Counted from the stretch's first letter, positions 532-43,691 are shown. The stretch: DNA of 64,000 nucleotides from a virus (IMGVR_UViG_3300025647_000030:3941-67940), one strand, 5' to 3'. The notes: a model not told the origin generated them from the sequence alone. Made by a program: numbers and translations.

Positions 532-1826
532 TAGATAATCAAATAGAGAATGGTGGATTTTCATTCGGTAATTTTAATTGGTGGTTTGGTGTAGTTGAAA
601 AACGAGATGATCCTGAAAAATTAGGTAGACTTCGCGTAAGAATTCTAGGATATAATTCACCTGATACATCCGATATAAAATCTGAAAAGCTAATATGGGC
701 TTATCCAATTCAACCAATTATATCATCTGCTATGAACGGAATTGGTTTATCGCCAACGGGTATTGTAGAAGGTACTTGGGTATTTGGATTTTATCGTGAT
801 GGCCATTTCGCGCAAGACCCAGTTATACTTGGAACAGCAGGTGGTATTCCTTCCGATAAGAAACAATTTAAGGGTGGTGATGGATTTATTGATCCTCTGG
901 GTACTTATCCTAGAGATGACTTCATTGGTGAATCTGATACAAATAGATTGGCTAGAAATGATCCACCAGACGATTCTGGTGATAAGCCACAAACTATATT
1001 AGAAAAACAGAAAAGCGGTGAATCTCAAAAAGTACCTATTGCATTAGAGGGTTTGTCAAAGCAAGTCGCTCAAGCTAAACAACATAAGCAGGATGTTGAA
1101 GAAAAGAAAAATTGGACTGAGAAAGTCACTACATACAATGCACTCTATCCATTCAATCATGTTAAAGAAACCGAATCTGGTCATATTGAAGAATGGGATG
1201 ATACTAGGGATGCTGAACGATTTAAACGTTGGCATCGGTGTGGTACCTTTATTGAAGAACATAATGATGGAGATGTTGTACGTAGAGTTAAAAGAAATAA
1301 TTATGAATTGATTATGGGTGAGAATTTTGTTCAGGTTATTGGCGACTGTTCAATTACTATTGGTGCTGGTGATGATTTTGGTACTATAGAATCTGATGAA
1401 ATGGATTGGACAAAAGAAGATTCTAATCCAAATATTGAACGCGGTGAAGAACCACATCTAAAAGATGTTCCTGAAATGTGGGATGAAGAATTGGATGATG
1501 ACGCATATGTTGATCCGGACTTAGATGTTAAGAAATATAAAAAAGCATGGAAAAATGAGAGAAATATTGGTAAATCATCTTTGAATCTATTGGTTAAGGG
1601 GGATGTAAACCTTGAAGTTGAAGGTGATAGATATGAGAAGGTTCATGGTAAAATGGAATTATATGTTGAGAAAGATTTGCATATAAAGAGTGGTGGAACT
1701 ATTTACGCCGATGGTGGACCCGATATACATCTGAATAAACCCGGACCCACTCTTGATGTTGAATCTATTGCTTCTCCTGATTGGAGTTCAAATAAAAAAG
1801 GTAGAATAGATCCAGATGAGCAATGA
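528..1826 (+). CDS. gp5: Baseplate central spike gp5 (OB-fold plus beta-helix, no lysozyme domain)
   Basis: WWFGVVEKRDDPEKLGRLRVRILG...GIVEGTWVFGFYRDG..AQDPVILG (gp5 OB-fold) and YPFNHVKETESGHIEEWDDT..AER (gp5 C-terminal region). Confidence 0.92.
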   Translation: MIDNQIENGGFSFGNFNWWFGVVEKRDDPEKLGRLRVRILGYNSPDTSDIKSEKLIWAYPIQPIISSAMNGIGLSPTGIVEGTWVFGFYRDGHFAQDPVILGTAGGIPSDKKQFKGGDGFIDPLGTYPRDDFIGESDTNRLARNDPPDDSGDKPQTILEKQKSGESQKVPIALEGLSKQVAQAKQHKQDVEEKKNWTEKVTTYNALYPFNHVKETESGHIEEWDDTRDAERFKRWHRCGTFIEEHNDGDVVRRVKRNNYELIMGENFVQVIGDCSITIGAGDDFGTIESDEMDWTKEDSNPNIERGEEPHLKDVPEMWDEELDDDAYVDPDLDVKKYKKAWKNERNIGKSSLNLLVKGDVNLEVEGDRYEKVHGKMELYVEKDLHIKSGGTIYADGGPDIHLNKPGPTLDVESIASPDWSSNKKGRIDPDEQ

Positions 1827-4800
1827 ATTAGTTCTACGAAATCAAGGTGAGTGGGAATTTCCCTATTATGATCCAAGCTATCAAAAAACCGATAGAATTA
1901 TCGAAATGGCGATTAACTCAAAATATATCGCCTACTCCTTTAGTGGTTATAGAGAAGATTTACTTGATTATTATGAATACATAGAAATACGTGATTTGGA
2001 AACTAATGATCTAGTTACCACATTATATACAACTCTTATGTATGATGAAACATTTGGTGGCGCTATGGCCATGAATGAAAATTATCTTGCTGTAGGTACA
2101 GGGGGCATATTTGCTGATTATGGATATCCCAATACTAGCAGAATTGAAGTCTTTAATTTAAATACGTTTGAATTTGAATATGAAATTACTGAACCAACAT
2201 TACAGCAAGTAGAAAATCATTTATCAAGCTATACTAGTAATACATTAAATGTTTATGATGGCTATATTGGATCGTTTAATTCAACCAATGGCATGAAACT
2301 ACAACTAACAAATGATGATAATTTAATATCGCTTACTGATATTAGTGTTTCTTGCATTATTGATGCACCCGTACAAATTTATACATTTAATGAGTATGGT
2401 CCACAAAATGGTTATGCAAATGTGGGTGTTACTCAGAAAAATACAGTAACAATAGATGGTCGGGATCCAGATAATTATGATAATATTTTAGAAAATTATG
2501 CTGAATATACACCATTCATAGAAACAGATTATCAATTAGTTTTTGATGGATACTATGATGATAGAGCATTTAATTTAAATTGTCCTTTTCCAGTTGTATA
2601 TTTAAATGTAGAATATGCCGCAAATGAAACATGGTTAAATGCTAACTCAATAATAACATTTGGTGATTCGACTTTTGAATATAATTTTGATTATTCTTAT
2701 CCTGAACTTCCAAAAATATTTATAGATTATAGTGATGGATCCATACATAAAATATATGAAAAAACTATCGGTGATATTGGAAATAGAACACATCATGTCG
2801 TACCACATTTTTCGTTTGAACGTGATGAATATGGTAATATTGATTTAATATATGAAATTATTTTTCATGAAGCAGAACCTTGGCGTATTGATATTTTAAT
2901 TCATCATAGAGAACCGAATCCACAGTTTTATAATAACATGAACGGTTATGATTTGAATGTGGGTGATGAACTGATTTCACTTAATTTATTATATAGTTAT
3001 GACTTAAAGAATAATAATTTTATAGATTTCTATAGAATATTTGATGCAAATATAAATTATTTAAACGAGATGGTTAGAATCTCCGGAGAAAGCTTCGCGC
3101 AGGCTTTTGGTTCCGAATTTGCTATTGAAAATGATGGTACTGTTGCTTTATCATATTTTAGATCCTATGATACAATACCACCTACTTGGGTGGATGAATC
3201 AAATGTGGGTGCTTTAATATTTGACACATATAGTCATGAATTGATTAGCGATAATATTATGATTGGTGAAAACTCAATTGAAGTTGATAGTAATTACGTT
3301 TATACCGTTGGCACAAACATTGTTAATGCTAATGATTCCACTCCATTACAACCTATAACTGGAAAATACGCATATAGGTTTGATGTTAATGCACAATTTA
3401 AAGTATATACATCATTAACTATAGATACATATAATGATAATTTTCTGAAATATTCCAGAATATATGTTGATAAATTTTATTCAGTTAATACACAAAATAT
3501 AAATGGTTCTTATGTACAACATGGAGAAATAACACCAGTAGTTGATGAAAATCATCCAGATTATAATGGGTTTGATGATACATTCGGACAAGATGTATTT
3601 TTATTGGATGATAAAATTTATATTACATCATCAAAATATCAATCAATATATGTTTTTAATGCGGAAACTTTACAATTAATAACCGAATTTAAAAATCCAA
3701 TAAGCACCAATTTATATTTCGGTGAATATGTTTCTTTTAGTGATTCTACAATTGCTTGTTCGGTTTTTGATTCCGTAGCAAATACTAATTCTGTATTGAT
3801 ATATGACATTAATACATTTGATCTACTTCTGACAATTAACGATCCTAATAATTATACGGGTAGTATGTTTGGTCGTTTATATGATACGTATTCAAAAACT
3901 ATTGCTATGACTGATACGAGAATTATAATATCGGATCCAGCATATTTAAATGATGTTGGAAATGGAATAGTTTATGTTTTTAATATTATCTATGGAAATC
4001 TAATACATCAAACAGAAAACATACATAGTGGCACAATTGATTTTGGTTTTGCCGTTGATTTGGATTCACAATATTATTATGTTTGCTGTCCAAATATAAC
4101 TTCAATATTTTCATTAGAAACGGGCAATACCATTAATTCAATATCTAATTCTGGGTATTCAATAGACGTTAGCGATAGTTATATTTATTTAATAGACAGT
4201 CCGACAGTTGATTCTATACAAACAATTACAGTTTTGGATAAAAATGATTTTTCAGTTTTTGCATTGGCACCAACAACAATTAGAGTAAATGCATCTGAAG
4301 GTTTTAAAAGAATAAAAGAATTTTCCGATAAAATTTATTTAAGTATTCCGGAGAGAAATCTATTAGATGAAAAAATATTCGATGAGCAACATGACTATAG
4401 TAAAATACTTTCATTTCCAACAAATCATTTAATTCAAGAATTTGGTTCTATTGTTGATTTTGAATTATTATCCGGAAGATCGTCGATTATTTCAAATTAT
4501 ATAACATATAGTTCCGATTCTAGACTTAATGATAATTTTGGACATGATATTGCATTATCTCCAGATGGTAAAACACTCTACGCATACGGTAGAACAAATG
4601 ATACTTTTAATGAAGATAAAGTTTATGTAATTGATACCGAAACAAAATTAGTTAAGCATATTATAGAGAATCCAAATTTGGGTACAGCCTATGGTGATTT
4701 AGCTGATCTTTTTGGAAGAAGAAGTTTTAGTCAGGATCCCGGTACTACTATCGCGGCTGTTGATAATTATATTATCATTGGCGCAATGTCCGAAGATTCA

Positions 4801-7800
4801 AATATTAATGGCGTTGATGTTTCTAATACAGGTATAGTATATGTTTTTGATGCTACAACATATGAATTGTTATATACGTGGGAAACAGATGATTACTATT
4901 GGAGTAATTTTTTTGGTAGTAAAATAAGGGCATATGGTGACCATGTATTATGTTCTGGTATAGTATCCGCTAAATTATATAGTTTATCTACTGGTTTAGA
5001 ATTGTGGGATGGCTATTCTACTTATCAAAATTCATATCTGGGTTATGATATTGCTATCTCCGATAAGTACTTTGCTATTGGTGGTGCAGAAGGCGCTACT
5101 AAATTTGTAGATGTTTATGATATTTTAACGAAAACGTTGTTAACTAGATATACGCTTCAGATTGATCGTGGTGCAGTAGATATAATTGGTGATACATTAC
5201 TTGTAGATAAAGAAAACTCAACAAATATCTATACTATTGATATTTTAACGGAAGTAATATCTGAAGTTACAATTGATCCGGCAAAAAACACAAGCAGGAT
5301 TAGAATAGAGCATAATGATTCTTATATTTTTGTAGTTGATTATGATCATAATGAACATTATGCTGTCAGCGTATTGACTCATAATTTTGCAATTGTCAAC
5401 CAGTATATTGACACATCATTAGCACGTCCGGATTTTATTCAAGATAATTTTCAAGTAGGATCTTTTGCCGGATCATTAGCATTTGCAAATGATAATAAAA
5501 TATATTTCGGTTGGCCAAATTATTGGAGTATTTATGGTGAAGAATCTGGTAGAATTGAAATATTTTCTTTTGATAATGATTTACTTGAATTTACATGGAA
5601 TGATTGGATTGAAGCAATTGAGGATTCTAATGGAACAATACCGGCTGTTGATACGAATGTAAATTATTCAATAAGTGGTTTAAAGTCAAATGATAGATGG
5701 GAAATTATTGGACATGTTAGTGGTCCTCATGTACCTGAACCTACTGTAAATAATGCTGATTGGACTGTTGAGGTTATCGACAAGTATTATGAAACAACTT
5801 TTCCTAATATAAGATTGAGGAGATATACATCACCATCATTATACTATCGTGATGATGGTTTTGGTAAAGTTGTTGAGATTTCAGATAATGGTATAATGGC
5901 TATTTCGGCTCCAGATCACTGGGATGGTTCATTAATACCTTATGCCGGTATTGTTTATTTATTTGATTTAACATCAAATCAGATGACCTATACTAATTGG
6001 ATTGAAGAACCAACTACCGCATCAAATCATTATTTTGGTTCAATTTCATCAATATCACCAAATGGCAGATATTTATCTATTGGAAATACAGTTGGTAATG
6101 TTTACGTTTATGATTTAATTTCGACTCCAACATTAGTAGCCACTTTAGATAGTACAACAGGAAATTTACAGTTTGGTCGAGGTATAGCATCATCAAACGA
6201 TTATGTTGCTATTGTGGATAATAAATTTGTTGAAATATTTTCATTAGTTGATTTTAGTCTATTAGCAACGATTGATCCATCAATCGATGCTCCTTTAGGT
6301 GTAAACTTTAACAGAATATTTGAAAAATATATTAAAATTCAAGGTAATAAATTATTTATTCCAATTGATCAAAATTCAAAATATATTTTAATATATGATT
6401 TAACAGATATAAACTCGGTATCTTTTATTAAATATATTGATGTTCAAACTACTAGTTATTTTTCTTATGATGTTTGTGGTGCTTATTTGGCTGTAGGTAC
6501 TAATAAAGTATTGGTGTATGATAATCAAGATAATGCATATCCTCTAATTAAAGAATATTCAAGTTATGCATATGCTAATCTAATGGTTTATGATACATTC
6601 GCTATTTCCAATGATGGTAGAATATTGCACCAATATAATGACTCAACAATTATTAGTTTAGATGATATAATATTTGACATGTTTGATTATTATGAAAGAA
6701 TAGGTAAGAATATACGTGATCTGAAATCAGAAAATGAAATGTTGGAAATTAAAGTATATGATAAAAATAATGGAGATTTTTTAGATTCAAATACAATAGG
6801 TGGTTCTCAAGTTTATCAAAATAATTTTAATAGTTCCGCTGGTGGTTTTTACACTACAAGGCTGGATGTTGAAGATTATGATATTAGAAACACATATTCA
6901 GTTGAAATGAAAGGAGCATGTTTGGTTATTTCTAATCCATATGAAGTTTATTATGATAACAATGGAAATTTAGTTGAAGGTGCAATTCGCGTTGTCAAAA
7001 AGAGTACATTAAATGAAATATTCTATTATAGAGAAAAAAATCTTTTTGAATCTGGATATACGAATAATATAGATCAATCAATAACTAAAAATAGATTTGT
7101 TAGTTGGACTGGAGATGAGGTTTTTAATCTTTATGATAGAGTTATAATCAACAGTAATAAAATTGTATCTTTAACAGATACATCATATGACGATATTGAT
7201 ACTCAAGGACCAAATTTTTTCTGGGGTGTTTGGGATTATTCATGTGGATGTAAAATAACTTATATAACTTCATCCACACTATACAATGATTATCTACCAT
7301 TAACTGAAACCGAACATAATGATGATTATCCTGAAGTAGCCATGGAAAATTATGAATTCTATAAAAAGATAGAATATACTGCTGATTCAGAACCAGAAAT
7401 ATTTGAAATTGTTTCGGGTGAACTACCGAATGGATTGGATATTGATTTACATACACTTGAAATTACTGGTATACCAACACTTGGCTGTAATATAGAGAAT
7501 GGAAATATTCCGTTTAATCAATGGCATATTAATGAGGATTCATATAGACAGGCGACACCATCTTTTGAATATACAATTATTATTAAAGCAGATTGTGATG
7601 AAGATTCTTTTCCATATACGATACCTGTTTATCCAAACTGGACTCCGTATAAAGATGCACTTAATAATTCTGAGCAATATTTTGAAAGACCAATTAAAAA
7701 TAAAATAATTACTGAATATGAATATACATATGAAAAAACAATCGGTTCGGAATTATGCCCATGCGGTACTGAATTAACAACCGAAATAAAAACTTCTACT

Positions 7801-7989
7801 ATTATTGAAAATAAGTATAAATACCAACATAACGATTTAATTGAACATTTCGAAACAGAATCTACATGTACGCCATTTAGGTTAACTGAAAATAACGAAC
7901 AATTAATTATAACAGAAGAAAAAATAAAACCCAAAGTAACATCAAAATTAAAACCTATAGATAAAACGGGTTTATGTTGTGAGGAATAA
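1816..7989 (+). CDS. 2057-aa virion protein with multiple FG-GAP/WD-like beta-propeller repeats and a C-terminal Ig-like domain (gp5.1 position)
   Basis: Recurrent FG-x-x-(V/I)A motifs followed by G-x-VY(V/L)FD. IVSGELPNGLDIDLHTLEITGIPT is a putative Ig-like motif. Lies between gp5 and PAAR. Confidence 0.65.
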   Translation: MSNELVLRNQGEWEFPYYDPSYQKTDRIIEMAINSKYIAYSFSGYREDLLDYYEYIEIRDLETNDLVTTLYTTLMYDETFGGAMAMNENYLAVGTGGIFADYGYPNTSRIEVFNLNTFEFEYEITEPTLQQVENHLSSYTSNTLNVYDGYIGSFNSTNGMKLQLTNDDNLISLTDISVSCIIDAPVQIYTFNEYGPQNGYANVGVTQKNTVTIDGRDPDNYDNILENYAEYTPFIETDYQLVFDGYYDDRAFNLNCPFPVVYLNVEYAANETWLNANSIITFGDSTFEYNFDYSYPELPKIFIDYSDGSIHKIYEKTIGDIGNRTHHVVPHFSFERDEYGNIDLIYEIIFHEAEPWRIDILIHHREPNPQFYNNMNGYDLNVGDELISLNLLYSYDLKNNNFIDFYRIFDANINYLNEMVRISGESFAQAFGSEFAIENDGTVALSYFRSYDTIPPTWVDESNVGALIFDTYSHELISDNIMIGENSIEVDSNYVYTVGTNIVNANDSTPLQPITGKYAYRFDVNAQFKVYTSLTIDTYNDNFLKYSRIYVDKFYSVNTQNINGSYVQHGEITPVVDENHPDYNGFDDTFGQDVFLLDDKIYITSSKYQSIYVFNAETLQLITEFKNPISTNLYFGEYVSFSDSTIACSVFDSVANTNSVLIYDINTFDLLLTINDPNNYTGSMFGRLYDTYSKTIAMTDTRIIISDPAYLNDVGNGIVYVFNIIYGNLIHQTENIHSGTIDFGFAVDLDSQYYYVCCPNITSIFSLETGNTINSISNSGYSIDVSDSYIYLIDSPTVDSIQTITVLDKNDFSVFALAPTTIRVNASEGFKRIKEFSDKIYLSIPERNLLDEKIFDEQHDYSKILSFPTNHLIQEFGSIVDFELLSGRSSIISNYITYSSDSRLNDNFGHDIALSPDGKTLYAYGRTNDTFNEDKVYVIDTETKLVKHIIENPNLGTAYGDLADLFGRRSFSQDPGTTIAAVDNYIIIGAMSEDSNINGVDVSNTGIVYVFDATTYELLYTWETDDYYWSNFFGSKIRAYGDHVLCSGIVSAKLYSLSTGLELWDGYSTYQNSYLGYDIAISDKYFAIGGAEGATKFVDVYDILTKTLLTRYTLQIDRGAVDIIGDTLLVDKENSTNIYTIDILTEVISEVTIDPAKNTSRIRIEHNDSYIFVVDYDHNEHYAVSVLTHNFAIVNQYIDTSLARPDFIQDNFQVGSFAGSLAFANDNKIYFGWPNYWSIYGEESGRIEIFSFDNDLLEFTWNDWIEAIEDSNGTIPAVDTNVNYSISGLKSNDRWEIIGHVSGPHVPEPTVNNADWTVEVIDKYYETTFPNIRLRRYTSPSLYYRDDGFGKVVEISDNGIMAISAPDHWDGSLIPYAGIVYLFDLTSNQMTYTNWIEEPTTASNHYFGSISSISPNGRYLSIGNTVGNVYVYDLISTPTLVATLDSTTGNLQFGRGIASSNDYVAIVDNKFVEIFSLVDFSLLATIDPSIDAPLGVNFNRIFEKYIKIQGNKLFIPIDQNSKYILIYDLTDINSVSFIKYIDVQTTSYFSYDVCGAYLAVGTNKVLVYDNQDNAYPLIKEYSSYAYANLMVYDTFAISNDGRILHQYNDSTIISLDDIIFDMFDYYERIGKNIRDLKSENEMLEIKVYDKNNGDFLDSNTIGGSQVYQNNFNSSAGGFYTTRLDVEDYDIRNTYSVEMKGACLVISNPYEVYYDNNGNLVEGAIRVVKKSTLNEIFYYREKNLFESGYTNNIDQSITKNRFVSWTGDEVFNLYDRVIINSNKIVSLTDTSYDDIDTQGPNFFWGVWDYSCGCKITYITSSTLYNDYLPLTETEHNDDYPEVAMENYEFYKKIEYTADSEPEIFEIVSGELPNGLDIDLHTLEITGIPTLGCNIENGNIPFNQWHINEDSYRQATPSFEYTIIIKADCDEDSFPYTIPVYPNWTPYKDALNNSEQYFERPIKNKIITEYEYTYEKTIGSELCPCGTELTTEIKTSTIIENKYKYQHNDLIEHFETESTCTPFRLTENNEQLIITEEKIKPKVTSKLKPIDKTGLCCEE

Positions 7990-8045
7990 TAAATTTAACA
8001 GAGCATATCATATGAATAATTTAGAAAAATTAATAGGAGAATATC

Positions 8046-8342
8046 ATGCCCAGTGTACACCGATTAGGTGATTTTTGCACTGGGCATGGTTAACTAGGTT
8101 GTTTCCCAACTAGAATGAATGATGAAGCAAGTGATGATGTTTTTGTCAATGACATAGGTTGGCATCGTGAAGATGATCATTGGGTTAACCATTGCTGTGC
8201 TATATCTTGTCATGATTCATATTTGCTAGCCGGTTCTTCTACTGTTTTTGTCAATGACAAACAGGCGGCTAGAGTTAATGATCCAGTTGCTTGTGGTAGT
8301 TTCTGCTTAGATGGATCGGAAAATGTATTCGCCGGAGGATAA
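8046..8342 (+). CDS. gp5.4: PAAR spike-tip protein (gp5.4-like), interrupted by an in-frame TAA at 8091-8093 (recoded gene or pseudogene)
   Basis: AGGAG RBS at 8035-8039, ATG at 8046. Translation MPSVHRLGDFCTGHG*LGCFPTR...VFVND...HCCAISCHDS.L.AGSSTVFVNDKQAARVNDPVACGS...GSENVFAGG. The track ORF 8115..8342 is the in-frame 3' part. Confidence 0.85.
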
Positions 8343-8345
8343 TAA

Positions 8346-8726
8346 ATGTCATTTTACGCTGACTTAGATTTGGATTTTTTAATGCATCCAATGAATTCAG
8401 ATATTTCTAGGAAATATGATGAACAAGCAATTGCTAGATCGATAAAAAATCTAATATTAACCAATAAATATGAAAGATTATTTAATGTGGATGTTTATGG
8501 TGGAATTTCTGCTTTACTATTTGAGCCGGCTGATATTGTTACATTACATACACTTGAAGGTAAAATTAAAAGCGTAATAAACAGATATGAACCTAGGGTT
8601 AAAGATGTTTCCGTTGAATGTTATATAAATTCAAGTGGTGATGGTGTTGATACTACTATATTTTTTACACCCATAAATAATAGAATACCCACACAAATAA
8701 CACTTTATCTAAAACGAGTAAGGTAA
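8346..8726 (+). CDS. gp25: Baseplate wedge subunit gp25
   Basis: YADLDLDF..HP...D....DEQAIARSIKNLILT.KYERLF...G.....LLFEP...INRYEPRV; lies just before gp6. Confidence 0.92.
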   Translation: MSFYADLDLDFLMHPMNSDISRKYDEQAIARSIKNLILTNKYERLFNVDVYGGISALLFEPADIVTLHTLEGKIKSVINRYEPRVKDVSVECYINSSGDGVDTTIFFTPINNRIPTQITLYLKRVR

Positions 8727-8732
8727 AAACAA

Positions 8733-10496
8733 ATGGCTAACACATTAATAAAACAAGATTTAGATTTTAAATCAATTAAGAAAAACTTAATTGAATATCT
8801 AAAAACCCAAGATGAATTTAAAGATTACGAATATCTTGGTTCTGCTATGAATATCTTAACCGATCTTCTTGCTTATAATACTCATTATATGGGGTATTAT
8901 GCTCATATGTTAGCTAATGAATCTATGATTGAATCGATTCTTAGAAAAGAAAATATGAATTCGAAAGCTAAATTCTTTAATTATTTACCTAAATCTAAGA
9001 AAGCATCTAAAGCATTAGTTACAATAACTGTACCGAATCCATCTCCAAACACAAGTGTAAAAATTGATAGAGGTGAATCTTTTAACGCAAAAAGAGATAA
9101 TCCAACACTATCAGATATTAGAACATTTATACTTACAGATGATTTATATATCTATTATAACGCCGAAACTGGAGACTATACTTCAACTGAAGTTTTATTA
9201 TATGAAGGTGAATTCATAACACAATTATTTAAATCTGGTCCGGAAAAACGATATGTTATTAATGATAATGATATTGATACTGACACATTAAAGGTAGTTG
9301 TTAAAGAAAATGAAAATTCTACAGTATCAACAACATATACATTGGCTGATGATTTTACAAATATTAATGGTGAATCTCAGGTTTATTTTTTAAACTTGAA
9401 CGAAAATGATCAGTATGAAATATCATTTGGTAATGATGTTTATGGAAAATCTGTTAATGACTATTCATATATTGAAGTAACTTTCGTATCAACTAATGGA
9501 TCATTAGGTAATAGTGTAACTGCTTTTAGTGCGCCAGAAGGAATTACTTCCGTCAATGTTATTGAAAATTCAACAGATGGAACCGATGCTGAAACGCTAG
9601 AAGATTTACGACACAATATAAAACATCATTACCGCAGACAAAACCGTTTGGTTACAGTAGATGATTTTAAAAATATAGTATTGTCTGAATATAAAAATAT
9701 TAATTCGGTGAATGTTTGGGGTGGTGAAGATAACATACCAAAAGCATATGGTAAAGTATTTGTTTCAATTAAACCACTGTTCGGTGAAGTTTTGTCAAAT
9801 GAAACAAATAAACAAATATTGAATAAACTTAAAAAATACACAATGGCAACAATTGAACCTGTTATTGTTGATCCAGAATATACCTATATTAATTTAGATG
9901 TTTATGTTAAGAATAACACGTTATTAACAAGTTTACGTCAGGGTGAACTGAAGAAATTAATAATCGATGAAATAAATTATTATAATACAGAAATTTTAAA
10001 TAAGTTTGATTCTTATTATTCCGATGTTAAATTAAATACAAGAATCATGTCGCTATCTACTAGTTTCATGTCAACTTATAATAAGATAGTATTGGAAAAA
10101 AGATTCATACCAAATTTATTATCCAGTGAAACTTATTTTATATATTTTTTGAATAAAATTGATGAAACCACTGTTACATCAAATAACTTCTATTTTAGAA
10201 ATAAAATTACAAAAATTGCCGATGATGGTTTAGGAAATGTAATAGCATTTTTCTATGATGAAAATAAAAAGGAATTTATTAAGTATTCAAATGAAACATT
10301 TGGTACTGTTGATTACGAACAGGGTATTGTGAAAATTTCTGATATTGTTTTCTCAAAACTTATTGAGGATGATATTAAGGTTTTTGCAAATCCAATCAAT
10401 CCTTTATTCTTTGCTAAACTGAACAATATTATTTCAATAGATAATGTTCAGATTTTCATTGAAGATTATCATGGTAGAGAAAGCGAAAAATCATGA
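8733..10496 (+). CDS. gp6: Baseplate wedge subunit gp6
   Basis: LDFKSIKKNL..YL..QDEFKDYEY.GSAMNILTDLLAYNTHY; QNRLVTVDDF; VWGGEDN.PKAYGKVFVSIKP. Confidence 0.95.
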   Translation: MANTLIKQDLDFKSIKKNLIEYLKTQDEFKDYEYLGSAMNILTDLLAYNTHYMGYYAHMLANESMIESILRKENMNSKAKFFNYLPKSKKASKALVTITVPNPSPNTSVKIDRGESFNAKRDNPTLSDIRTFILTDDLYIYYNAETGDYTSTEVLLYEGEFITQLFKSGPEKRYVINDNDIDTDTLKVVVKENENSTVSTTYTLADDFTNINGESQVYFLNLNENDQYEISFGNDVYGKSVNDYSYIEVTFVSTNGSLGNSVTAFSAPEGITSVNVIENSTDGTDAETLEDLRHNIKHHYRRQNRLVTVDDFKNIVLSEYKNINSVNVWGGEDNIPKAYGKVFVSIKPLFGEVLSNETNKQILNKLKKYTMATIEPVIVDPEYTYINLDVYVKNNTLLTSLRQGELKKLIIDEINYYNTEILNKFDSYYSDVKLNTRIMSLSTSFMSTYNKIVLEKRFIPNLLSSETYFIYFLNKIDETTVTSNNFYFRNKITKIADDGLGNVIAFFYDENKKEFIKYSNETFGTVDYEQGIVKISDIVFSKLIEDDIKVFANPINPLFFAKLNNIISIDNVQIFIEDYHGRESEKS

Positions 10497-13922: not shown

Positions 13923-16900
13923 ATGGCAAAAATAAAATTTAGTAGTGGACCGTACTATGATGATTTCGATTCAACTAAAAATTATCAGAGGGTTCTTTTT
14001 AAACCGAAAAATTCAATTCAGGTTAGAGAATTAAACCAGTTACAATCTATTTTCTCCAACCAGATTGAAACTTTTGCAGATCATATATTTAAATTTGGAT
14101 CTAGGGTTGATGCTGGTTCTGTTAAATATTTTGATTCAGTTGATTACGTTTCTTTAGAGGAAAGTGATATTGATTTTACCAATATGATTGGTAGAAAATT
14201 TAAAGGACTTTCAACAGGTTTAACTGCTATTGTTTTGACATATGCACCTGAAGAAGAAATTGATAAAGTAAATAATATAATTGAAAATAATACTCTGTAT
14301 ATATCATATGTTGGTGGTGGTGATACATTAGAAGTTAAATTCCGCGATGGTGAAATAATAGAATCTATCGATGACTATAAAGATACATATACAATTTCTT
14401 CCGTAGGTAAGGGTACAACCTTTGCCGTATCAGAAGCAACTTATTATGTTTATGGTCATTTCGTAACTTGCTTACCTCAAACAATCGTACTTAGTAAATT
14501 CGATAAGAATCCAACTTATAAAATTGGTTTACTTATTAATCAATCTATTGTCACCAGTAAAGATGATAAAACACTACTTGATAATGCTATAGGTACATCA
14601 AATTATGGCGCTCCGGGTGCTGATCGCTATAAGATAGAATTAACACTAACTAAAAAGAATATTGATGCTGTCACCGATGAAAACTTTATTGAATTGGCAA
14701 AAGTCAGAGATGGTAAATTAACAGAAGTATTGAATAAACCACAATATTCAGAAATTTCAAAAATGATCGCCAAAAGAACATACGATGAATCTGGCGATTA
14801 TACTGTAAAACCATTTACTCTTTCATTTGAAGAAAATGAAACTGACTCAACAAAATATAATATTACAATTTCTCCCGGAAAGGCATATGTTAAGGGCTAT
14901 GAAATTGAAAAACAAACCAACACACATCTAATTGCCGATAAGTCATATGGTTCTGAAGGTATAACTAAAAACGTTAATATTGATTACAATAATAGAGTTT
15001 TATATACTTTAAATCCAATGGCAAATTTACCTAATTTTACGCCGAATGTTGATAATACATATGTTTCTACGACAAAACATGAAGTTGATATTAATACTTA
15101 TATAAATCATGTATATGATTTAACTAGTACTTACACAGATTACACACATAAAGCTTTAACCAGTAGTACTATCGGTTATATAGGAGATTTAAATGGTGAC
15201 ATTTTTGTTACCGGAGATCCATTAACCGAAGAGCCGTATTTTGCTACTAGTACTAGTACGTATTATGATAGCGGATATATAAATTATGGAGCAGTACAAA
15301 TAAAGGATATTAATACCGGAGAAAACCGTATTATATACAATCCAGAAATTGAAAATGGAAATTCAACAAAAAATATTGTCTGGCTTTTTGAACCAACTGG
15401 ATCCGATCTCAGTACTAACCTACAAGATAGATACTTCCATTTTTCATTAGAAGGAGCGTCTTGGATATATGGAGAATATTGGAATCGACCAAAAGATTCA
15501 TATTCCTATACTGTTATTGAAGGACATACTTATTATATTAATGATGTTTTTAATAATAAATTTTATAAATTAGTATTCACGACATATGATTTAGATCCTA
15601 ATGGTTATGGTACTGTAGAATATACAAGACAAGAAATTCATAGAACAACAGGACAATTAATTGGAACACCAATTAATGTTGTTATGAATGATACAAATCA
15701 ATTTGTAGATGAAATAGGCACAAATGTATCTCTCGCTATAAATTGGAATACGGCATATGGTATTCAAATGATTGGATTTATCAATCCAATTTATAACACT
15801 GAAGTCACAAACAGTTCTCTAAATATTGATCCATATAATTATTATGAAGATGCTGTTAAGTACCAACCAAATTTTGGTTTTGATGTTTCACATAATAATA
15901 ATTATTTATTCGTTTCAGCAAACAAACCCTTCGATCAAGAAACGTCATATTATTCATATCAATATTATGGAAATGTAAATAATGTTGAAGGTGATAAAGT
16001 TTACATATTTGATAAAAATAATAATTATGAATTAATACATGAAATAATTTCAGATTCACCAGTAAATGATTGGAATTCTGGCACTATATATTCAAATTTT
16101 GGTTATAGATTAGCATCATCGGATGATTATCTTGTGGTTGTTGAATTTGTAAATGTTGAAAGTGCTTACTATAATTATAGATATGATGTTCACTTCAATG
16201 TTAAGGTTTATTCAACGGTTGATTGGAGTAAAATACATGATTTCACACTACCAAATTCTTTATTAACATCACATTATTCGTTTTTTCCATCCAAATGGTC
16301 TAGAGACTATTTTGATGGTCCATTAATTAATATACATATCGATAAAAGTGATGGTAAAACTCTAGTCATTGCAATGGAGCATGGTGAACAAATAGCTTTG
16401 TTGAATTATCCAGCTGAAAAAAATTCAAGTGTAATGGCTTTTGATTTATCAACAACAATAAACACCGACACAGTACTTGATTTAGAACAATCAGCTATTT
16501 TTTTAATTGATAGAAATTATACCGATGATAATTATATAGGTGTCCATGGTGATAGAATATCAACTTTTGGTGTTGGTTCTAATGTTTTGGTTAATAATAC
16601 AACTCCAACAAGTGATTTAATAAACAATAATTATTATGATGTAAAATTTGAATTTTTAGCAAGTAGAGAAACAACTGCGATAAATGGTGATTATATATTA
16701 ATAGGTGAACCTGGTTATGATGCCGAGTATAATGGAAGTTATTATAAATCTTCAGGTGCCGCATATCTTTATGATAGAAGTGGTACATTACTACATACAT
16801 TTACACATCCAGAAGATTATAATGAACCAGACGTATTACAACTTTTTGGTTTTTCTGTAGCATTAAATGACAATTTCATATATATTTCTACAATATCCGA

Positions 16901-19900
16901 TCATGATTGGAATCATCCGGCTGCAAATAATTATACAATTAGTCCAACGGGTGCTATTTATGTTTTTTCTTTACATACATATGAACTATTAGATGTTATA
17001 AGAAGTGATCCATATACTCAGAATTACGATAATTATATGTATAAAAATTTTTATGGTGATGCTGATCAGTTCAATACTTATATGAATAACATTGATTTCC
17101 TAGGAAATTCAATTTATTTAAATAATAATCATTTTATTGCATCGGCAAATAATTCAGCAGACGTTAATTCCATATACAATTATCATAATAATCAACAGCC
17201 CTATGATAATATAGAATTAAATTATGGTAGATATAGTGTTTGGTCTGTAACCGACACATCAACCGGTAATGTTTGGGAAGGCGTACCCTATTTTGGTAAT
17301 CCAGAAGATAATAAGTTTACAACTATTGATGCAACCGGAACTTATCCACTTGATGGTACATTTATGTTCAAATCATATGAGAAGGTTGATGATGAAACAT
17401 ACTATCTAAACTATTTTGACTTTAATGGTACTATTAATGAAAACTTTACAACACCATTCTATTACTTACACGATACAGCAACAGAAAATACACTTATAAA
17501 TTCATTAGGATCCGATGTTAGCACTATTTCAAACATTGTCTTTATTGAAGGTGGAGTTGAAGTCAATGCAATATTGAAAACAAAGACATTAAAAGAAAAA
17601 ACAATAACACATACAACCAGTATATCCGATGAAACTATTAGTCTACTTCAGGCTGATTGTGTTAGAATTGTTTCAATTACAAATGTAACGCAAAGTAAAG
17701 ATTACACAAACAATTATAAGTTGAATATTAATTCTAGTGGTAATTATTATGAATATTCATCAATAGACGTTAGAAGTACATACTATGAATGGCCAACTGC
17801 TGGTGATGTTTTATCCATTACTTTTGAATATTATGAATGGGGTAATACAGCAACCGGTCATTGTTTTGTGAAAGATTCATATATTGGTGTTGACTATATT
17901 AATTTCCCATCATTTGAATCCTATAATTTAAGAGATTGCATTGATTTTAGACCTCTTAAATTACCTACTGGTGAAATACTCTATGCCAATGGTACGCCAG
18001 ATGATATGTCAATTATTTCATTTGATGCTGAATATTATAGATCAAGAATCGATGTATTATCATTGACGGACACAGGTAGATTTATTATCACAACAGGTCA
18101 ATATTCTGATAACCCTAAAGCACCTAAGATACCTGATAATGCAATGCCAATTTATACTATTGATTATCTTCCAAATACCTTAAACCTGTATAATGATATT
18201 TTTCCAAAATTCATTGAGAATAAACGTTATACAATGTCGGATATTTACCAATTAGAAAAAAATATCGAAAATCTAGAAACATATGTAACACTAAATTTAC
18301 TTGAGAGAGATTTGGATACTATGGAGATTTTTGATGCTAATGGTAATAAACGCTATAAAAATGGTTATATCACAGATAATTTTGATAGTTTAAAAAGTGC
18401 GAATGTAACATCTAAAGATTATCAGGCTGGTGTTGATGTTATTCGTAAAGAATTAAGACCATCATTCAAAAAACGCGATGTTAAATTAGCATTTGATGAA
18501 AGTAAATCCGATCATTATCAGGTAACGGGTGATGTTGTTACCTTACCCTATGCCGATGTCGAATATGTTAAACAACCATATAATACTAAAACTATTTCTA
18601 TAAATCCATATTTTGTTTTCGCATCAAAAGGAAATATGGATTTATCACCATCGAATGATGTGTGGACAGATACAGTTAATGATCCGCCTGTAAAAGTCAA
18701 TATTGATACTGGTGTTGATATGGCTAGAACTTTGGCATCTGAAGTTGGATTGACTGGAACATTCTGGAATGAACCAAAGATAACAAAGGAAGTTATTTCT
18801 AGCAGTCAGTCTGAATCTACTTCATCTGCATCAAGAACGCGCACAGTCGCGACCGCAGGTCGTTCGCAAAATGGACAGCTTGTTAGGAGAACAACCACAA
18901 CTACAACAGTGACAACTACACAAACGGATAGAATTAGAGAAACTAGAGATTTTACCGGCGATAAAGTTACTTTAGAGGGCGAAATAAATGATTATTCTGT
19001 TGGTAATGTTGTTAACAATGTGGAATTATTAACATATACACGTTCAACGGATGTATATTTCTCTGCGGCTGGATTAAAAGGAAATACACAAGTTTATTTC
19101 TTCTTTGAAGGTGTTGATGTAACGGAAGATGTTAGACCTGTTAGCGGTGTTTTTGGTACTCCGATGATAACATCCGAGACTGGTTCTATTTCCGGAATAT
19201 TCAGAATACCCAATCGTGAAGGTAAAAGATTTTATGTTGGTACCGGTACATTTAGAATCACAAATTCAAAAACAAACAGTGATGATCAGGATGAATTATT
19301 ATGTTTTGCTGAAGCGCAATATCATTCCGGTGGTTTAGTTCAGGATAAAAATGATAGAATATTAAGTGTTACTTCTCCTGTATTTGTGCATACACCTGTA
19401 ACAAAAACACTAACAAGTACATATAACGAAAGTAGAGTTGTTGGATCAACAAGTTCTGCAAGCACAAGAGATGTGGCTTTGCCGCTGCGGCCGCGGGTCG
19501 TTGTGAATAGGTTCGGTCGGGATCCAGTTGCACAATCATTTAAAATTGAAAATGAAGAAAATGGTGTATTCTTAACTAAGATCGATACATATTTCTCGGA
19601 AGTCGGAACTAAAGGAATGCCTTGTTGGCTTGAAGTGCGAGAAATGGTTAATGGTTATCCGGGACCTAAATTAATTCCATATGGTAGAATATATAAAAAC
19701 GCAGATGCAATTTCGGTTTCAGAAGATGGTTCTATACCCACAACATGGACATTTGAATCACCATTATATTTGAGTTCACAAGTTGAATATTGTTTTGTTA
19801 TTGGTGGAAATGATCCTGATTATAGAATACATATATGTAAACTTGGTGACACCGATGTTTTAACCAATACTGTAGTTGAAGAACAGCCGCATATGGGTTC

Positions 19901-21350
19901 TATGTTTAAAGGACAAAACAACCGTACTTGGAATGCTTCACAATATGAAGATATTAAGTTTATACTATATAAAGCCAAATTTGATATATCTTCTCAAATG
20001 AAAGTTTCATTTGTGCGTGATGATATTGGAACAAAAGAACCAATGTCAACAAATGCCTTTGAAACCGTAACTGATAGCTATGATATTAGAGTGCGTCATT
20101 TAAATCATGGATTTAGTGTTGGTGATAAAGTTACTATTAATTTGTTGGAAGATAATACTTTTGATTTACTTATTGTTTCTGGTGATATTACTGAAGGTCA
20201 GACTATTACTGGTGCAAATGGACAATTTAAAGTAAAAGAAGCAACCTATGTCGGTACTGATGAATTAACTGGTTATGAAAAATATTCAATACAGCCAGAA
20301 GATTTATTTGGTTATTTTTCTGATAATGAAACAGTTAATGGATTACCTTATTATCCAAAAATACCACCAAAATTAAACATTTATAGCATTGATGATATAC
20401 CAACAACAATAGATCCACTTGTTGCTATATTGCCAGATGGTATTGATAATACATTTAACGGTATATCACTTTCTGCATTATCTAAGAAAGCACACACCAT
20501 TACTGGAGTTGATTCTTTAGATACATTCACAATTACACTGAATGAGAAAGCAAGCGAAACTGGTAAAATAGGTGGACTTGGTAATTATCTATATCCTAAT
20601 ATTGTTTTTGACGCAATGAATTTAAGTGTATCTGATATTGACTTTGCTGGTACCGGCACATGGTACTATGATAGTGTTAGATATTCTGGTATAGGTTCTA
20701 TTCTACAGAATAATCTTGCTATTACAGGACAATATTTTGTGAAGAATAACTTTACTGAATTGGAAATGCCAATAAAAATGAATACTGCAACAAATGATAA
20801 ATTAAAATATATTGATGGTAGTAAATCATTTTACGCGATAGGGCAGTATGAATCTTTGGATGAAAATGTTTCACCCATTATAAATACATCAAATTGTGTT
20901 ATTAAAACATTTGGTAATAGAATTGAATGGAATGATGCCGATACACATTTAGATTGGATAGAAGAAACAAATTCTTTAGGTGAAGGTAGCGAAAAAGCAA
21001 AATACTGTACTTTACCTGTTAGAATGACAGATTCGGCAAATGATATTAGGATTATTTGTGATATAAATTGTCAAGATGAAGGTGATGTAATATTCTATTA
21101 TAGAACATTAGATGAACAGTCTTATGATGATATACTAGATGAAGATTGGATAAAAATTGACCCATCATCTTTTATTTTAACTAAGGTTGATGATAGAACT
21201 ACTTTTATTGAGCATGAGATAAATATACCGGATGTTGCTGGTTTAGAATTACCTAATTTTAAAGCATACCAGATCAAAATAGTATTAAAAACAAGAAATA
21301 CATCTAAGCCACCTAGAATAAAGAAATTGAGATGTATAGCAACCACATAG
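13923..21350 (+). CDS. Large structural protein, VrlC/DUF4815-like, paralog 1 (with beta-propeller insertion)
   Basis: PYYDDFD..KNYQRVLFKP...IQVRELNQLQS, APGADRYKI, AKRTYDESGDYTV, DPVAQSF, C-terminal PPRIKKLRCIATT. Confidence 0.8.
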   Translation: MAKIKFSSGPYYDDFDSTKNYQRVLFKPKNSIQVRELNQLQSIFSNQIETFADHIFKFGSRVDAGSVKYFDSVDYVSLEESDIDFTNMIGRKFKGLSTGLTAIVLTYAPEEEIDKVNNIIENNTLYISYVGGGDTLEVKFRDGEIIESIDDYKDTYTISSVGKGTTFAVSEATYYVYGHFVTCLPQTIVLSKFDKNPTYKIGLLINQSIVTSKDDKTLLDNAIGTSNYGAPGADRYKIELTLTKKNIDAVTDENFIELAKVRDGKLTEVLNKPQYSEISKMIAKRTYDESGDYTVKPFTLSFEENETDSTKYNITISPGKAYVKGYEIEKQTNTHLIADKSYGSEGITKNVNIDYNNRVLYTLNPMANLPNFTPNVDNTYVSTTKHEVDINTYINHVYDLTSTYTDYTHKALTSSTIGYIGDLNGDIFVTGDPLTEEPYFATSTSTYYDSGYINYGAVQIKDINTGENRIIYNPEIENGNSTKNIVWLFEPTGSDLSTNLQDRYFHFSLEGASWIYGEYWNRPKDSYSYTVIEGHTYYINDVFNNKFYKLVFTTYDLDPNGYGTVEYTRQEIHRTTGQLIGTPINVVMNDTNQFVDEIGTNVSLAINWNTAYGIQMIGFINPIYNTEVTNSSLNIDPYNYYEDAVKYQPNFGFDVSHNNNYLFVSANKPFDQETSYYSYQYYGNVNNVEGDKVYIFDKNNNYELIHEIISDSPVNDWNSGTIYSNFGYRLASSDDYLVVVEFVNVESAYYNYRYDVHFNVKVYSTVDWSKIHDFTLPNSLLTSHYSFFPSKWSRDYFDGPLINIHIDKSDGKTLVIAMEHGEQIALLNYPAEKNSSVMAFDLSTTINTDTVLDLEQSAIFLIDRNYTDDNYIGVHGDRISTFGVGSNVLVNNTTPTSDLINNNYYDVKFEFLASRETTAINGDYILIGEPGYDAEYNGSYYKSSGAAYLYDRSGTLLHTFTHPEDYNEPDVLQLFGFSVALNDNFIYISTISDHDWNHPAANNYTISPTGAIYVFSLHTYELLDVIRSDPYTQNYDNYMYKNFYGDADQFNTYMNNIDFLGNSIYLNNNHFIASANNSADVNSIYNYHNNQQPYDNIELNYGRYSVWSVTDTSTGNVWEGVPYFGNPEDNKFTTIDATGTYPLDGTFMFKSYEKVDDETYYLNYFDFNGTINENFTTPFYYLHDTATENTLINSLGSDVSTISNIVFIEGGVEVNAILKTKTLKEKTITHTTSISDETISLLQADCVRIVSITNVTQSKDYTNNYKLNINSSGNYYEYSSIDVRSTYYEWPTAGDVLSITFEYYEWGNTATGHCFVKDSYIGVDYINFPSFESYNLRDCIDFRPLKLPTGEILYANGTPDDMSIISFDAEYYRSRIDVLSLTDTGRFIITTGQYSDNPKAPKIPDNAMPIYTIDYLPNTLNLYNDIFPKFIENKRYTMSDIYQLEKNIENLETYVTLNLLERDLDTMEIFDANGNKRYKNGYITDNFDSLKSANVTSKDYQAGVDVIRKELRPSFKKRDVKLAFDESKSDHYQVTGDVVTLPYADVEYVKQPYNTKTISINPYFVFASKGNMDLSPSNDVWTDTVNDPPVKVNIDTGVDMARTLASEVGLTGTFWNEPKITKEVISSSQSESTSSASRTRTVATAGRSQNGQLVRRTTTTTTVTTTQTDRIRETRDFTGDKVTLEGEINDYSVGNVVNNVELLTYTRSTDVYFSAAGLKGNTQVYFFFEGVDVTEDVRPVSGVFGTPMITSETGSISGIFRIPNREGKRFYVGTGTFRITNSKTNSDDQDELLCFAEAQYHSGGLVQDKNDRILSVTSPVFVHTPVTKTLTSTYNESRVVGSTSSASTRDVALPLRPRVVVNRFGRDPVAQSFKIENEENGVFLTKIDTYFSEVGTKGMPCWLEVREMVNGYPGPKLIPYGRIYKNADAISVSEDGSIPTTWTFESPLYLSSQVEYCFVIGGNDPDYRIHICKLGDTDVLTNTVVEEQPHMGSMFKGQNNRTWNASQYEDIKFILYKAKFDISSQMKVSFVRDDIGTKEPMSTNAFETVTDSYDIRVRHLNHGFSVGDKVTINLLEDNTFDLLIVSGDITEGQTITGANGQFKVKEATYVGTDELTGYEKYSIQPEDLFGYFSDNETVNGLPYYPKIPPKLNIYSIDDIPTTIDPLVAILPDGIDNTFNGISLSALSKKAHTITGVDSLDTFTITLNEKASETGKIGGLGNYLYPNIVFDAMNLSVSDIDFAGTGTWYYDSVRYSGIGSILQNNLAITGQYFVKNNFTELEMPIKMNTATNDKLKYIDGSKSFYAIGQYESLDENVSPIINTSNCVIKTFGNRIEWNDADTHLDWIEETNSLGEGSEKAKYCTLPVRMTDSANDIRIICDINCQDEGDVIFYYRTLDEQSYDDILDEDWIKIDPSSFILTKVDDRTTFIEHEINIPDVAGLELPNFKAYQIKIVLKTRNTSKPPRIKKLRCIATT
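19883..19939 (+). repeat. 57-bp exact repeat, copy 1 (copy 2 at 25587-25643)
   Basis: ACAGCCGCATATGGGTTCTATGTTTAAAGGACAAAACAACCGTACTTGGAATGCTTC is present in both VrlC-like paralogs. Confidence 0.9.
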
Positions 21351-34319: not shown

Positions 34320-35015
34320 ATGAGAAATATTATGGTCGCGGCTCCGGCGCATGATGGAGCCAATAATGTGTGGCATACTTGTGCTTTGGTAAATACAGCA
34401 AAACAGGCTATCATGCGGGATATAAACATTATTCCGATTTATATGTCATATGATAGTCTTGTTCAAAGAGCAAGAAATGATATTGTCAAACTTGCCCTTC
34501 AGATGGAAGTTGATGATTTAGTATTCATTGACACAGATCAGGATTGGGAAGTTGATGATTTCTTTAAACTCATTGAGCATGATGTTGATGTTGTTGGTGT
34601 TCCTATCCGTAAAAAATCCGACGAAGAAACATATAATGTTAAACTATTAAGAGAATATAAAGTTCTTGAAAATGGTTTGGTCGATGTTGATTCTGTTGGA
34701 ACAGGTATGCTACGTCTAACAAGAAAAGCACTATTAGCAGTATGGAATGATTCCGAAGAATACTTAGAACAAGGTAAAGGCATGGGGCGCATGGTGTTTA
34801 GCGTAGAGATTGTTGGTGGTGTTCTATGGAGTGAAGATGTAGTTCTATGTAAAAAGCTAAATGACAATGGTATTAGAGTATATATTGACCCAACATTAAA
34901 TGCCGCACATTCTGGACATAAGCGTTGGATTGGAGACTTTGATACTTGGATTGGGCTTGTTACAACAGAACCAAAACCAACTTTACAAGAAATGAAGTCT
35001 ATGAAGGAGTTTTGA
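34320..35015 (+). CDS. GT-A fold (GT2-like) glycosyltransferase
   Basis: SLVQRARN, LVFIDTD (DxD), VGTGMLRLTR, WSEDVVLC, VYIDP....H.G. Confidence 0.8.
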   Translation: MRNIMVAAPAHDGANNVWHTCALVNTAKQAIMRDINIIPIYMSYDSLVQRARNDIVKLALQMEVDDLVFIDTDQDWEVDDFFKLIEHDVDVVGVPIRKKSDEETYNVKLLREYKVLENGLVDVDSVGTGMLRLTRKALLAVWNDSEEYLEQGKGMGRMVFSVEIVGGVLWSEDVVLCKKLNDNGIRVYIDPTLNAAHSGHKRWIGDFDTWIGLVTTEPKPTLQEMKSMKEF

Positions 35016-35016
35016 T

Positions 35017-39720: not shown

Positions 39721-40086
39721 ATGGCAGCACCAAATATAGTAGGCGTAACAACGATTACAGGAAAAACCGATGTAACGTCAATTGACGTTACAGCAACCGC
39801 AATTACTACAAACTCCGCGGCATCAAACCAAGTATATAAAATCAACTCATTGATTATTTCAAATATTGATGGAACAAATGATGCTGATGTTACTGTGGAG
39901 TTTGTGCGCGGTGGTACTGGATATGCACTTGCAAGTGTTATTACTGTTCCAGCGGCGGCCACTCTCGTCATCGTTTCAAAAGACAACGGCATTTATATGG
40001 AAGAAGGCGATTCAATTGAATGCACTGCTTCTGCCGCTGGTGACTTGCAAGCAATTTTATCTTACGATATTATAACTGATCAATAA
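39721..40086 (+). CDS. Small beta-sandwich virion protein
   Basis: GAGG RBS; MAAPNIVGVTTITGKT...YKINSLIISNIDGTNDADVTV...IYMEEGDSI; the type that follows ...AIAMAMIFG-ending genes. Confidence 0.75.
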   Translation: MAAPNIVGVTTITGKTDVTSIDVTATAITTNSAASNQVYKINSLIISNIDGTNDADVTVEFVRGGTGYALASVITVPAAATLVIVSKDNGIYMEEGDSIECTASAAGDLQAILSYDIITDQ

Positions 40087-42646: not shown

Positions 42647-42656
42647 AGAGGATAAT

Positions 42657-43466: not shown

Positions 43467-43469
43467 ATA
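43462..43469 (+). promoter_or_regulatory. Late promoter
   Basis: TATAAATA upstream of the 43500 ORF with AAGGAG RBS. Confidence 0.7.
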
Positions 43470-43499
43470 CATAAATAATAGTTGAAAAGGAGATATATT

Positions 43500-43652: not shown

Positions 43653-43691
43653 ATACTTATTAGAGACTCTTCTTCATTTTTAGTCTATAAA

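Follow-up and report, generated by a model that had tools for sequence, protein, structure and literature searches.

A stop codon within nine extra nucleotides of a T4-like phage spike-tip gene: a candidate in-frame ribosomal stop-hop beside a strong RNA hairpin

The closest described counterparts of the locus treated here are the synthetic stop-hops of Escherichia coli (Weiss, Dunn, Atkins and Gesteland 1987, as reviewed in PMC5009743), in which matched codons flank an in-frame stop and the peptidyl-tRNA leaves the first codon to re-pair with the second, the product remaining in frame and lacking the bypassed codons; both traits recur in what is proposed below. According to the same review, no natural in-frame stop-hop was known by 2016 (Atkins et al., PMC5009743), and none appears in the titles and abstract openings of later work among the matches listed. 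For the bypass of T4 gene 60, pairing of the mRNA leaving the ribosome has been proposed as the forward driver, and monosomes are reported to perform better (bioRxiv 2024.12.09.627546); an upstream hairpin refolding beside a shift site has been described as stimulating +1 and attenuating −1 frameshifting, also with 70S ribosomes (PMC6321510). The locus concerned lies in the virus sequence IMGVR_UViG_3300025647_000030:3941-67940 (the window, that is, the whole stretch of 64,000 nucleotides that was analysed, taken from an IMG/VR virus record of 67,940 bases whose completeness was put at about 37%), in which a gene for a PAAR spike-tip protein is interrupted by an in-frame stop codon within nine nucleotides that its relatives lack. 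We tentatively propose, at somewhat less than even confidence, that this gene is functional and that the full protein of 95 amino acids (aa) is made by a short in-frame hop over the lineage-specific insert.

Reading from position 8046 gives ATG CCC AGT GTA CAC CGA TTA GGT GAT TTT TGC ACT GGG CAT GGT, then TAA CTA GGT TGT TTC CCA ACT AGA ATG, the last of these at 8115, and the frame continues through to the TAA at 8340-8342. The elements of the interrupted gene are as follows.

8035-8039, + strand: Shine-Dalgarno sequence AGGAG, 6 nt ahead of ATG 8046.
8046-8090, + strand: first coding part of the PAAR gene, 15 codons (MPSVHRLGDFCTGHG), ending on the proposed take-off codon GGT 8088-8090.
8091-8093, + strand: in-frame stop codon TAA, followed by C, as read in the sequence.
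8091-8099, + strand: nine nucleotides without counterpart in relatives, for which any 9-nt frame between 8088 and 8100 may be chosen, the unique core being AACTA.
8097-8099, + strand: GGT, proposed as the site of landing, which gives the take-off tRNA its first cognate triplet on the 3' side of the take-off codon.
8100-8342, + strand: second coding part, with resume codon TGT 8100, 80 codons, and stop codon TAA 8340-8342.
8115-8342, + strand: open reading frame (ORF) of 75 aa, P0002, reported by gene callers, without a Shine-Dalgarno sequence before ATG 8115.

The first part contains the family-conserved residues R6, G8, D9, C11, G13 and H14, and a similar leader, AGGAGAATAT..ATG, precedes the gene in two relatives (L035 and L036). 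When exactly these nine nucleotides are dropped, both the motif CTGHGCFP and the length of 95 aa typical of the family return, in agreement with 26/26 aligned homologs, with the nearest relative, P0122, and with 84/84 related loci. The first-pass annotation had described matched GGT codons with a stop directly after the first, an in-frame 9-nt insert whose removal gives this motif, a ribosome binding site for ATG 8046 and no good one for ATG 8115, and the loss of the conserved histidine from a start at 8115; all of this is borne out by the sequence. The stop stands in the context TAAC, which occurs at only 1 of the 31 TAA-ending ORFs of the window and is the rarest TAA context among its gene ends.

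The exact placement of the insert is ambiguous because it is flanked by a repeat of four bases, GGTT (8088-8091 and 8097-8100), rather than only by the GGT that the annotation had given. Its remark that AACTAG recurs was correct: the hexamer stands at 8092-8097 and again at 8108-8113. Moreover, GGTT followed by AACTA equals the first four and the last five bases of the 16-mer immediately downstream, 8097-8112. As a repeated element GGTTAACTAGGTT occurs once exactly in the window, and 2 matches at up to 2 mismatches were found against 1.58 expected by chance.

The window being a metagenomic contig, a sequencing or assembly artefact had to be considered. Ten runs from five studies carry the region, and four of these (X1, X2, X6 and X7, one per study) were examined as per-run Logan contigs, X1 and X2 being flagged as possible sources of the window and X6 and X7 not. 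The contigs of all four span 8046-8342 with no gap and no differing letter, so that the identical nine nucleotides are present in separate assemblies from four studies, and the 75-aa ORF is called on 9 contigs from three sources. An artefact was rejected on this ground and is regarded as extremely improbable; the nine nucleotides are real. The evidence consists of contigs, which drop rare variants, and a minority without the insert may exist. The carriers range from 2017 (freshwater) to 2025 (estuary; X6) and are nearly clonal: the most distant of them, X6, differs over the stretch compared by 3 substitutions (7242, 9024 and 10712) and an extra A in the A-run after 8724. No RNA dataset is found among the runs listed as carrying the region.

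The relatives present a different picture. Comparison with phage genomes by tblastn gave 243 matching records, 230 of which extend over 80% or more of the query and take in the part ahead of the stop. Among the best 120 of 336 database proteins, 119 cover at least 93% of the query, the sole short one being P0002 itself. In the alignment, 26/26 homologs have GH-GCFP with no residue at the three columns that here would read X-L-G. The 90% cluster of P0002 holds one other member, P0122, which is uninterrupted, has 95 aa and differs from the window protein at 12 of 95 positions (87% identical). When P0122 was compared by tblastn with 87 related IMG/VR loci, 86 matched (L005 did not), and without L006, which is the window itself, and L007, which is cut by a contig end, there remained 84 complete loci, all of them single uninterrupted ORFs of 94-97 aa. 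Closer relatives with DNA were not obtained: PAAR peptides searched in metagenome contigs led to 1 distant locus, the best in IMG/VR reached 67%, and searches by the hairpin arms and by the gp25-like neighbour each returned 0. The conserved codon-stop-N3-codon inserts that the first-pass annotation proposed to look for in relatives occur in none of the 84 loci. The uninterrupted gene of P0122 and of all these loci is in part the outcome that it had named as refuting its proposal. The idea of a programmed stop-hop therefore stands as regards its anatomy, and gives the best fit to an intact gene, and falls as regards conservation. If a hop takes place, the best reading is a lineage-specific translational correction of the insert rather than a conserved device.

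The gene itself shows no decay. Once the three extra codons are left out, the protein has the family residue at 40 of the 41 columns conserved in at least 90% of members, and at the sole mismatching column the uninterrupted P0122 departs as well. The read-through translation (X at the stop) matches PAAR_motif (PF05488) with 55 bits against a cut-off of 27 and E 9.5e-15, although the continuous ORF usual in the PAAR family is broken by TAA 8091-8093. The metal-site residues C11, H14, H49, C50, C55, H56 and C83 are retained, and since H14 precedes the stop, the metal site would be complete only with both parts joined. The fold, a cone of three wrapped β-hairpins of about 95 aa, was assessed on P0122 and not on the window's own product: the AlphaFold2 (AF2) model of P0122, with a predicted local distance difference test (pLDDT) score of 98, superposes on the solved tips 9vyi, 4jiw_D, 4ku0_D, 9f4b_BA and 4jiv_D with TM (template modelling) scores of 0.84-0.91 over 91-96 alignment columns for the 95-residue model (0.84 for T4 gp5.4 and 0.87-0.91 for P1, KP1, c1882 and VCA0105). 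As the match extends over the whole model, the N-terminus is predicted to be part of the cone.

These data bear on two ways of making a protein without a hop, both of which we hold to be less probable than either a hop or a null allele. In the one, quite improbable, ribosomes would terminate at UAA after a 15-codon leader whose translation opens the hairpin described below, and would restart 22 nt further on at AUG 8115 to give 75 aa. This AUG is in frame and near the stop, spontaneous sliding and reinitiation of 70S ribosomes on polycistronic mRNAs has been described (PMC11194080), and the 75-aa P0002, called on the same 9 contigs, is the form held by public annotations. However, that form begins too late to contain C11, His14 and the first (R-L-G-D) of the three pseudo-repeats, in a protein whose N-terminus, on the P0122 model, would belong to the cone; in T4 the H14A variant of gp5.4 does not bind the spike gp5 (PMC12407873). 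Moreover, ATG 8115 has no Shine-Dalgarno sequence, a feature common at the genes of this phage, and, as already noted, no other short form was found among the best 120 database relatives.

The other, which we likewise consider improbable, is readthrough of the stop by a near-cognate or suppressor tRNA, which would give a 98-aa protein with X-L-G after His14-Gly15. The frame is open on either side of the stop and the TAAC context is rare among gene ends; apparent readthrough of in-frame stops has been reported as widespread in bacteria (PMC7918605), and the products of a stop-hop and of readthrough differ by a few residues only (PMC5009743). Against it, none of the 26 aligned homologs and none of the 84 loci accepts an extra residue at this site, which adjoins the very histidine whose loss in T4 gp5.4 abolishes spike binding (PMC12407873). 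A change of code or a suppressor tRNA was examined and rejected, since TAA ends 31/46 ORFs and is thus not reassigned, no tRNA gene is found in the 67.9-kb record (itself about 37% of the genome), and position 8091 is the sole split gene of 49 stops screened. Of the three stops UAA, to which both release factors respond, is moreover the least prone to leak.

A second feature of the locus lies upstream of the stop. The first-pass annotation had pointed to an imperfect hairpin at 8094-8113 covering the landing codon; it is present as sequence, the landing GGT lying within the 5' arm of a small stem (8097-8101/8107-8111), but it folds no better than shuffled sequences (8088-8117, z 0.02; 8076-8125, z +0.57) and is not significant. 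The stronger hairpin, which had been missed, covers both the start codon and the take-off codon.

8043-8090, + strand: strong RNA hairpin, outer stem 8043-8057 with 8076-8090, 15 pairs including 2 G-U.
8058-8061 with 8067-8070, + strand: inner stem of the hairpin, which closes the loop 8062-8066; an internal loop lies at 8071-8075.

In the outer stem AUC AUG CCC AGU GUA (8043-8057) faces UGC ACU GGG CAU GGU (8076-8090), so that the start codon is inside the 5' arm and the take-off GGU forms the last pair of the 3' arm. For 8030-8120 the folding energy is -33.6 kcal/mol, where shuffled sequences give -17.8 +/- 2.8 (z -5.6; 0/200 shuffles as good). For comparison with the family an identical 61-nt stretch (-16 to +45) was folded for 61 distinct sequences: the window gives -29.6 kcal/mol, z -7.2 and 15 arm-to-arm pairs, whereas the best z among the 60 relatives is -2.3, with at most 10 arm-to-arm pairs, the A+T-rich ones folding at -3 to -14 kcal/mol. 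A family-wide hairpin is ruled out by this comparison, and the structure of the window is unique among the 61 sequences. A few relatives show only weak AUGCC/GGCAU pairing, the Met-Pro and Gly-His codons being latently complementary; only in the window is this complementarity extended to a long stem.

The codons that form the stem are uncommon. Over 46 ORFs GGG serves for 2.3% of Gly, CCC for 7.8% of Pro, AGT for 16.7% of Ser and TGC for 16.9% of Cys, and for the given residues a codon choice that permits all stem pairs has a joint chance of 1.4e-4. Where relatives have Ser at position 3, it is encoded by TCA or TCG, which makes AGT the derived state. The two G-U pairs, which hold in RNA and not in DNA, argue weakly for selection at the level of the transcript over a single templated DNA event. 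Of 48 gene starts in the window none folds as stably as the one with the hairpin (-29.6 against -15.6 for the next and a median of -6.05), and among 12,788 sliding 61-nt windows it shares first place with a G+C-rich spot at 40391. There is no terminator-like site in 7500-8800 and no T-run follows the hairpin, and Rfam gave no match at E ≤1 within 7700-8500. The hairpin is thus non-random and, among the family sequences compared, unique.

The second most stable of the 48 starts, at 35017 (35001-35061; -15.6 kcal/mol), also has its start codon in a hairpin. A short ORF in another frame, 8012-8071 (ATG 8012, stop TGA 8069-8071), crosses the 5' arm and the inner stem of the 8043-8090 hairpin; a longer form starting with GTG, 7979-8071, overlaps the end of the preceding 2057-aa ORF. 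No clear ribosome binding site was seen for ORF 8012-8071, whose translation would open the hairpin.

It is tempting to connect the hairpin with the stop in a single mechanism. A ribosome initiating at ATG 8046 would unwind the hairpin and arrive with GGU 8088-8090 in the P site and UAA-C in the A site, a weak termination context in E. coli; the peptidyl-tRNA-Gly would then detach and re-pair with GGU 8097-8099 (+9), decoding being resumed from UGU 8100. While GGU 8088-8090 occupies the P site, the ribosome covers the 3' arm (-12 to +3), the 5' arm together with the inner hairpin being already outside. The push could come from the hairpin itself, as bases of the 3' arm leaving the ribosome pair with the waiting 5' arm. 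The calculated energy of the emerged RNA is -7.8 kcal/mol for end points 8075-8079, -19.9 at 8084, -23.1 at 8085 and -29.9 at 8090. If one assumes, as ribosome footprints generally suggest, that about 12 nt separate the P site from the 5' edge of the ribosome, a forward slide of 9 nt would release some 12-15 kcal/mol, and the steepest gain, about 3 kcal/mol per base, coincides with that 9-nt interval. We infer further that the refolded 5' arm, holding the start codon, would block the next initiation and leave the lead ribosome alone, trailing ribosomes thereby being kept off the hairpin. Even a low yield could suffice: the T4 tip gp5.4 is a monomer (PMC12407873), and one is needed per virion. 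Taken on what the sequence offers, such a hop is the reading that best explains the intact, undecayed gene. The fuller claim, namely a first natural in-frame stop-hop of +9 over UAA-CUA, powered by a hairpin which also gates initiation and fixes a very low output, seems doubtful as a whole.

The same data admit a reading in which there is little or no product, and which is a serious possibility, though on balance improbable: a tolerated null or near-null allele, arising by replication error at the base of the palindrome, in a phage that lives without a tip on its current host. In this reading the hairpin would be the older element, either throttling initiation or merely causing the mutation, and any hop would be adventitious. 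In-frame stops of single lineages are usually mutations, and the insert is absent from all 84 complete relatives and from P0122. The T4 amber mutant 5.4am shows no defect of assembly, plating or growth under standard assay conditions (PMC12407873). The resemblance of the insert to the local sequence, GGTT plus AACTA of the 16-mer 8097-8112, fits slippage; the nearly clonal carriers suggest that the allele may be young and its decay not yet visible; and the buried start at 35017 indicates that throttles may occur in this phage. On the other side, the tip-less T4 loses 1.55-fold per growth cycle in competition and fails on deep-rough hosts (PMC12407873), so that a true null should be costly; yet four studies, which span eight years, show the interrupted allele alone. 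The length of the insert is divisible by three, and frame, ribosome binding site and 40/41 conserved residues are intact on both sides of it; its stop stands in the rarest context among gene ends; and a pure throttle leaves unexplained the exact abutment of the 3' arm on the codon before the stop.

Several points weigh against the hop itself. The matched GGT codons may be unselected, since the GGTT repeat fits insertion by microhomology or slippage, and the recurrence of AACTAG 16 nt downstream is likewise slippage-like. The 15-bp palindrome is a likely hotspot of replication error, which would place an insert at its base without any function, and a hairpin that buries the start would on its own be expected to keep initiation very low, which is a simpler role. 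No nascent-peptide signal, no significant A-site stem-loop and no Shine-Dalgarno-like element 6 nt before the landing codon is present at the locus. The 5' stem-loop of gene 60 is described as lacking conservation among homologs and as perhaps incidental (Manning and Atkins preprint), unstimulated stop-hops are reported as low-level (bioRxiv 2024.12.09.627546), and the normal plating of tip-less T4 indicates that a null allele is survivable (PMC12407873). In the loci compared the insert is confined to a single lineage and does not form a conserved programmed site, and the near-clonality of its carriers prevented us from obtaining a dN/dS ratio. A small part of our confidence is reserved for an explanation outside those named.

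The surroundings of the gene are those of a T4-type baseplate module.

528-1826, + strand: gp5-like central spike, with the Gp5 N-terminal OB domain (Gp5_OB), E 1.2e-28.
8046-8342, + strand: PAAR spike-tip gene, from the Pfam PAAR_motif match of the read-through translation.
8346-8726, + strand: gp25-like wedge gene, by profile search.
8733-10496, + strand: gp6/baseplate J-like wedge gene, by profile search.

The best cultured-phage match of the gp6-like protein in the collection has 33.6% identity, and since no cultured phage comes closer, the phage is judged from its genes to be a distant T4-like myovirus, of freshwater. The window has a G+C content of about 30%, and its + strand carries nearly all long ORFs. 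Very long ORFs lie in the baseplate and fibre region at 1816-7989 (2057 aa), 13923-21350 (2475 aa) and 21361-27105 (1914 aa), the first of them between the gp5-like spike and the PAAR gene. In X2 and X6 an additional A lengthens the intergenic A-run 8724-8732, which separates the gp25-like gene from the gp6-like one. The gp6-like gene is microdiverse at 9926-10043, where a second contig with 7 substitutions is present in X1 and X2 at about 1/4 to 1/3 of the depth, and X6 has small insertions at 9967 and 9973. An island richer in G+C (40001-44000; 0.43 against about 0.30 elsewhere), with ORFs 40086-41909 and following, holds several of the most stable local folds of the window, e.g. 40391 and 41181. 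The motif TATAAATA, which we take to be the T4 late-promoter consensus, has 23 matches in the whole window against 18.3 expected, which is not significant; 18 are on the + strand and 5 on the − strand. Several stand just upstream of gene starts (e.g. 27178, 47277, 49750, 52618, 55841 and 56576), and one, at 7816-7823, is 222 nt upstream of the PAAR gene.

The interest of the locus lies in its compactness, for ribosome binding site, hairpin, take-off codon, stop and landing codon are all present within about 70 nt. If the hop is true, it would offer a minimal natural system for the study of how refolding of the exiting mRNA drives forward slippage, a point still argued for T4 gene 60; one RNA element would both gate initiation, providing a monosome mRNA, and drag the lead ribosome past the stop; and some phage genes annotated as 'truncated' would be whole. 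If there is no hop, the locus would show that a T4-like phage can do without its spike tip in nature over years, with a bearing on the tip's role.

The comparison with T4 gene 60 shows likeness in some respects: matched GGT codons (8088-8090 and 8097-8099), a stop, TAA 8091-8093, adjacent on the 3' side of the first, a T4-like phage as carrier, and a bypass which would neutralise an insert. In others the two differ. The gene 60 codons are separated by 47 nt (the 50-nt gap), those of the present gene by 6 nt. In gene 60 a KKYK nascent-peptide signal is described 14-30 residues before the P site; here only the 15 residues MPSVHRLGDFCTGHG lie upstream, and they hold no such signal. The take-off stem-loop of gene 60 has no counterpart, as the folds of 8088-8117 and 8076-8125 given above indicate, and its Shine-Dalgarno-like GAG 6 nt before the landing codon is absent. 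Gene 60 is a topoisomerase gene in which the interruption is part of a MobA mobile cassette (Manning and Atkins preprint), whereas the present gene stands among baseplate genes without a cassette. The 5' stem-loop of gene 60, which refolds on exit, ends 9 nt before take-off, while the very strong hairpin described here ends on the take-off codon and includes the start codon. With three defining features examined and lacking, and the mobile cassette absent, the locus falls outside the family of gene 60 bypass sites.

A candidate bypass in the gene for terminase in Hau3, a Streptomyces phage (PMC10732093), also rests on a short block, of 10 nt, that is absent from counterpart phages, the flanks adjoining one another in the relatives. 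The proposed stimulator there combines a slow codon in the A site with a 5' stem-loop, and a bypass peptide was detected by mass spectrometry in E. coli (PMC10732093). Unlike the present locus, Hau3 has a rare sense codon, UUA, in the A site and an insert that shifts the frame, and a regulatory role linked with the host cell cycle has been proposed for it (PMC10732093).

As a protein, the predicted product shares with T4 gp5.4 and the other PAAR tips of known structure (4ku0, 4jiv, 4jiw, 9vyi and 9f4b) the PAAR_motif, the single-domain cone of 95 aa and the His/Cys ligands, which in T4 gp5.4 are three His and one Cys binding a metal ion that links the hairpin tips (PMC12407873). As for tips of the gp5.4 type, its gene lies among gp5, gp25 and gp6 baseplate genes. 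The identity to the solved tips, measured on P0122, is 22-29%, and among all these PAAR tips only the window gene is interrupted.

In the synthetic stop-hops, 9 nt specify one residue (a +6 hop) at a low level and without stimulators (PMC5009743). In the present gene 12 nt would specify one residue (+9, a stop and one sense codon), in a natural setting and behind a strong upstream hairpin, so that the layout, as far as it can be read from the sequence, resembles a stop-hop in minimal form whose upstream driver is unusually strong.
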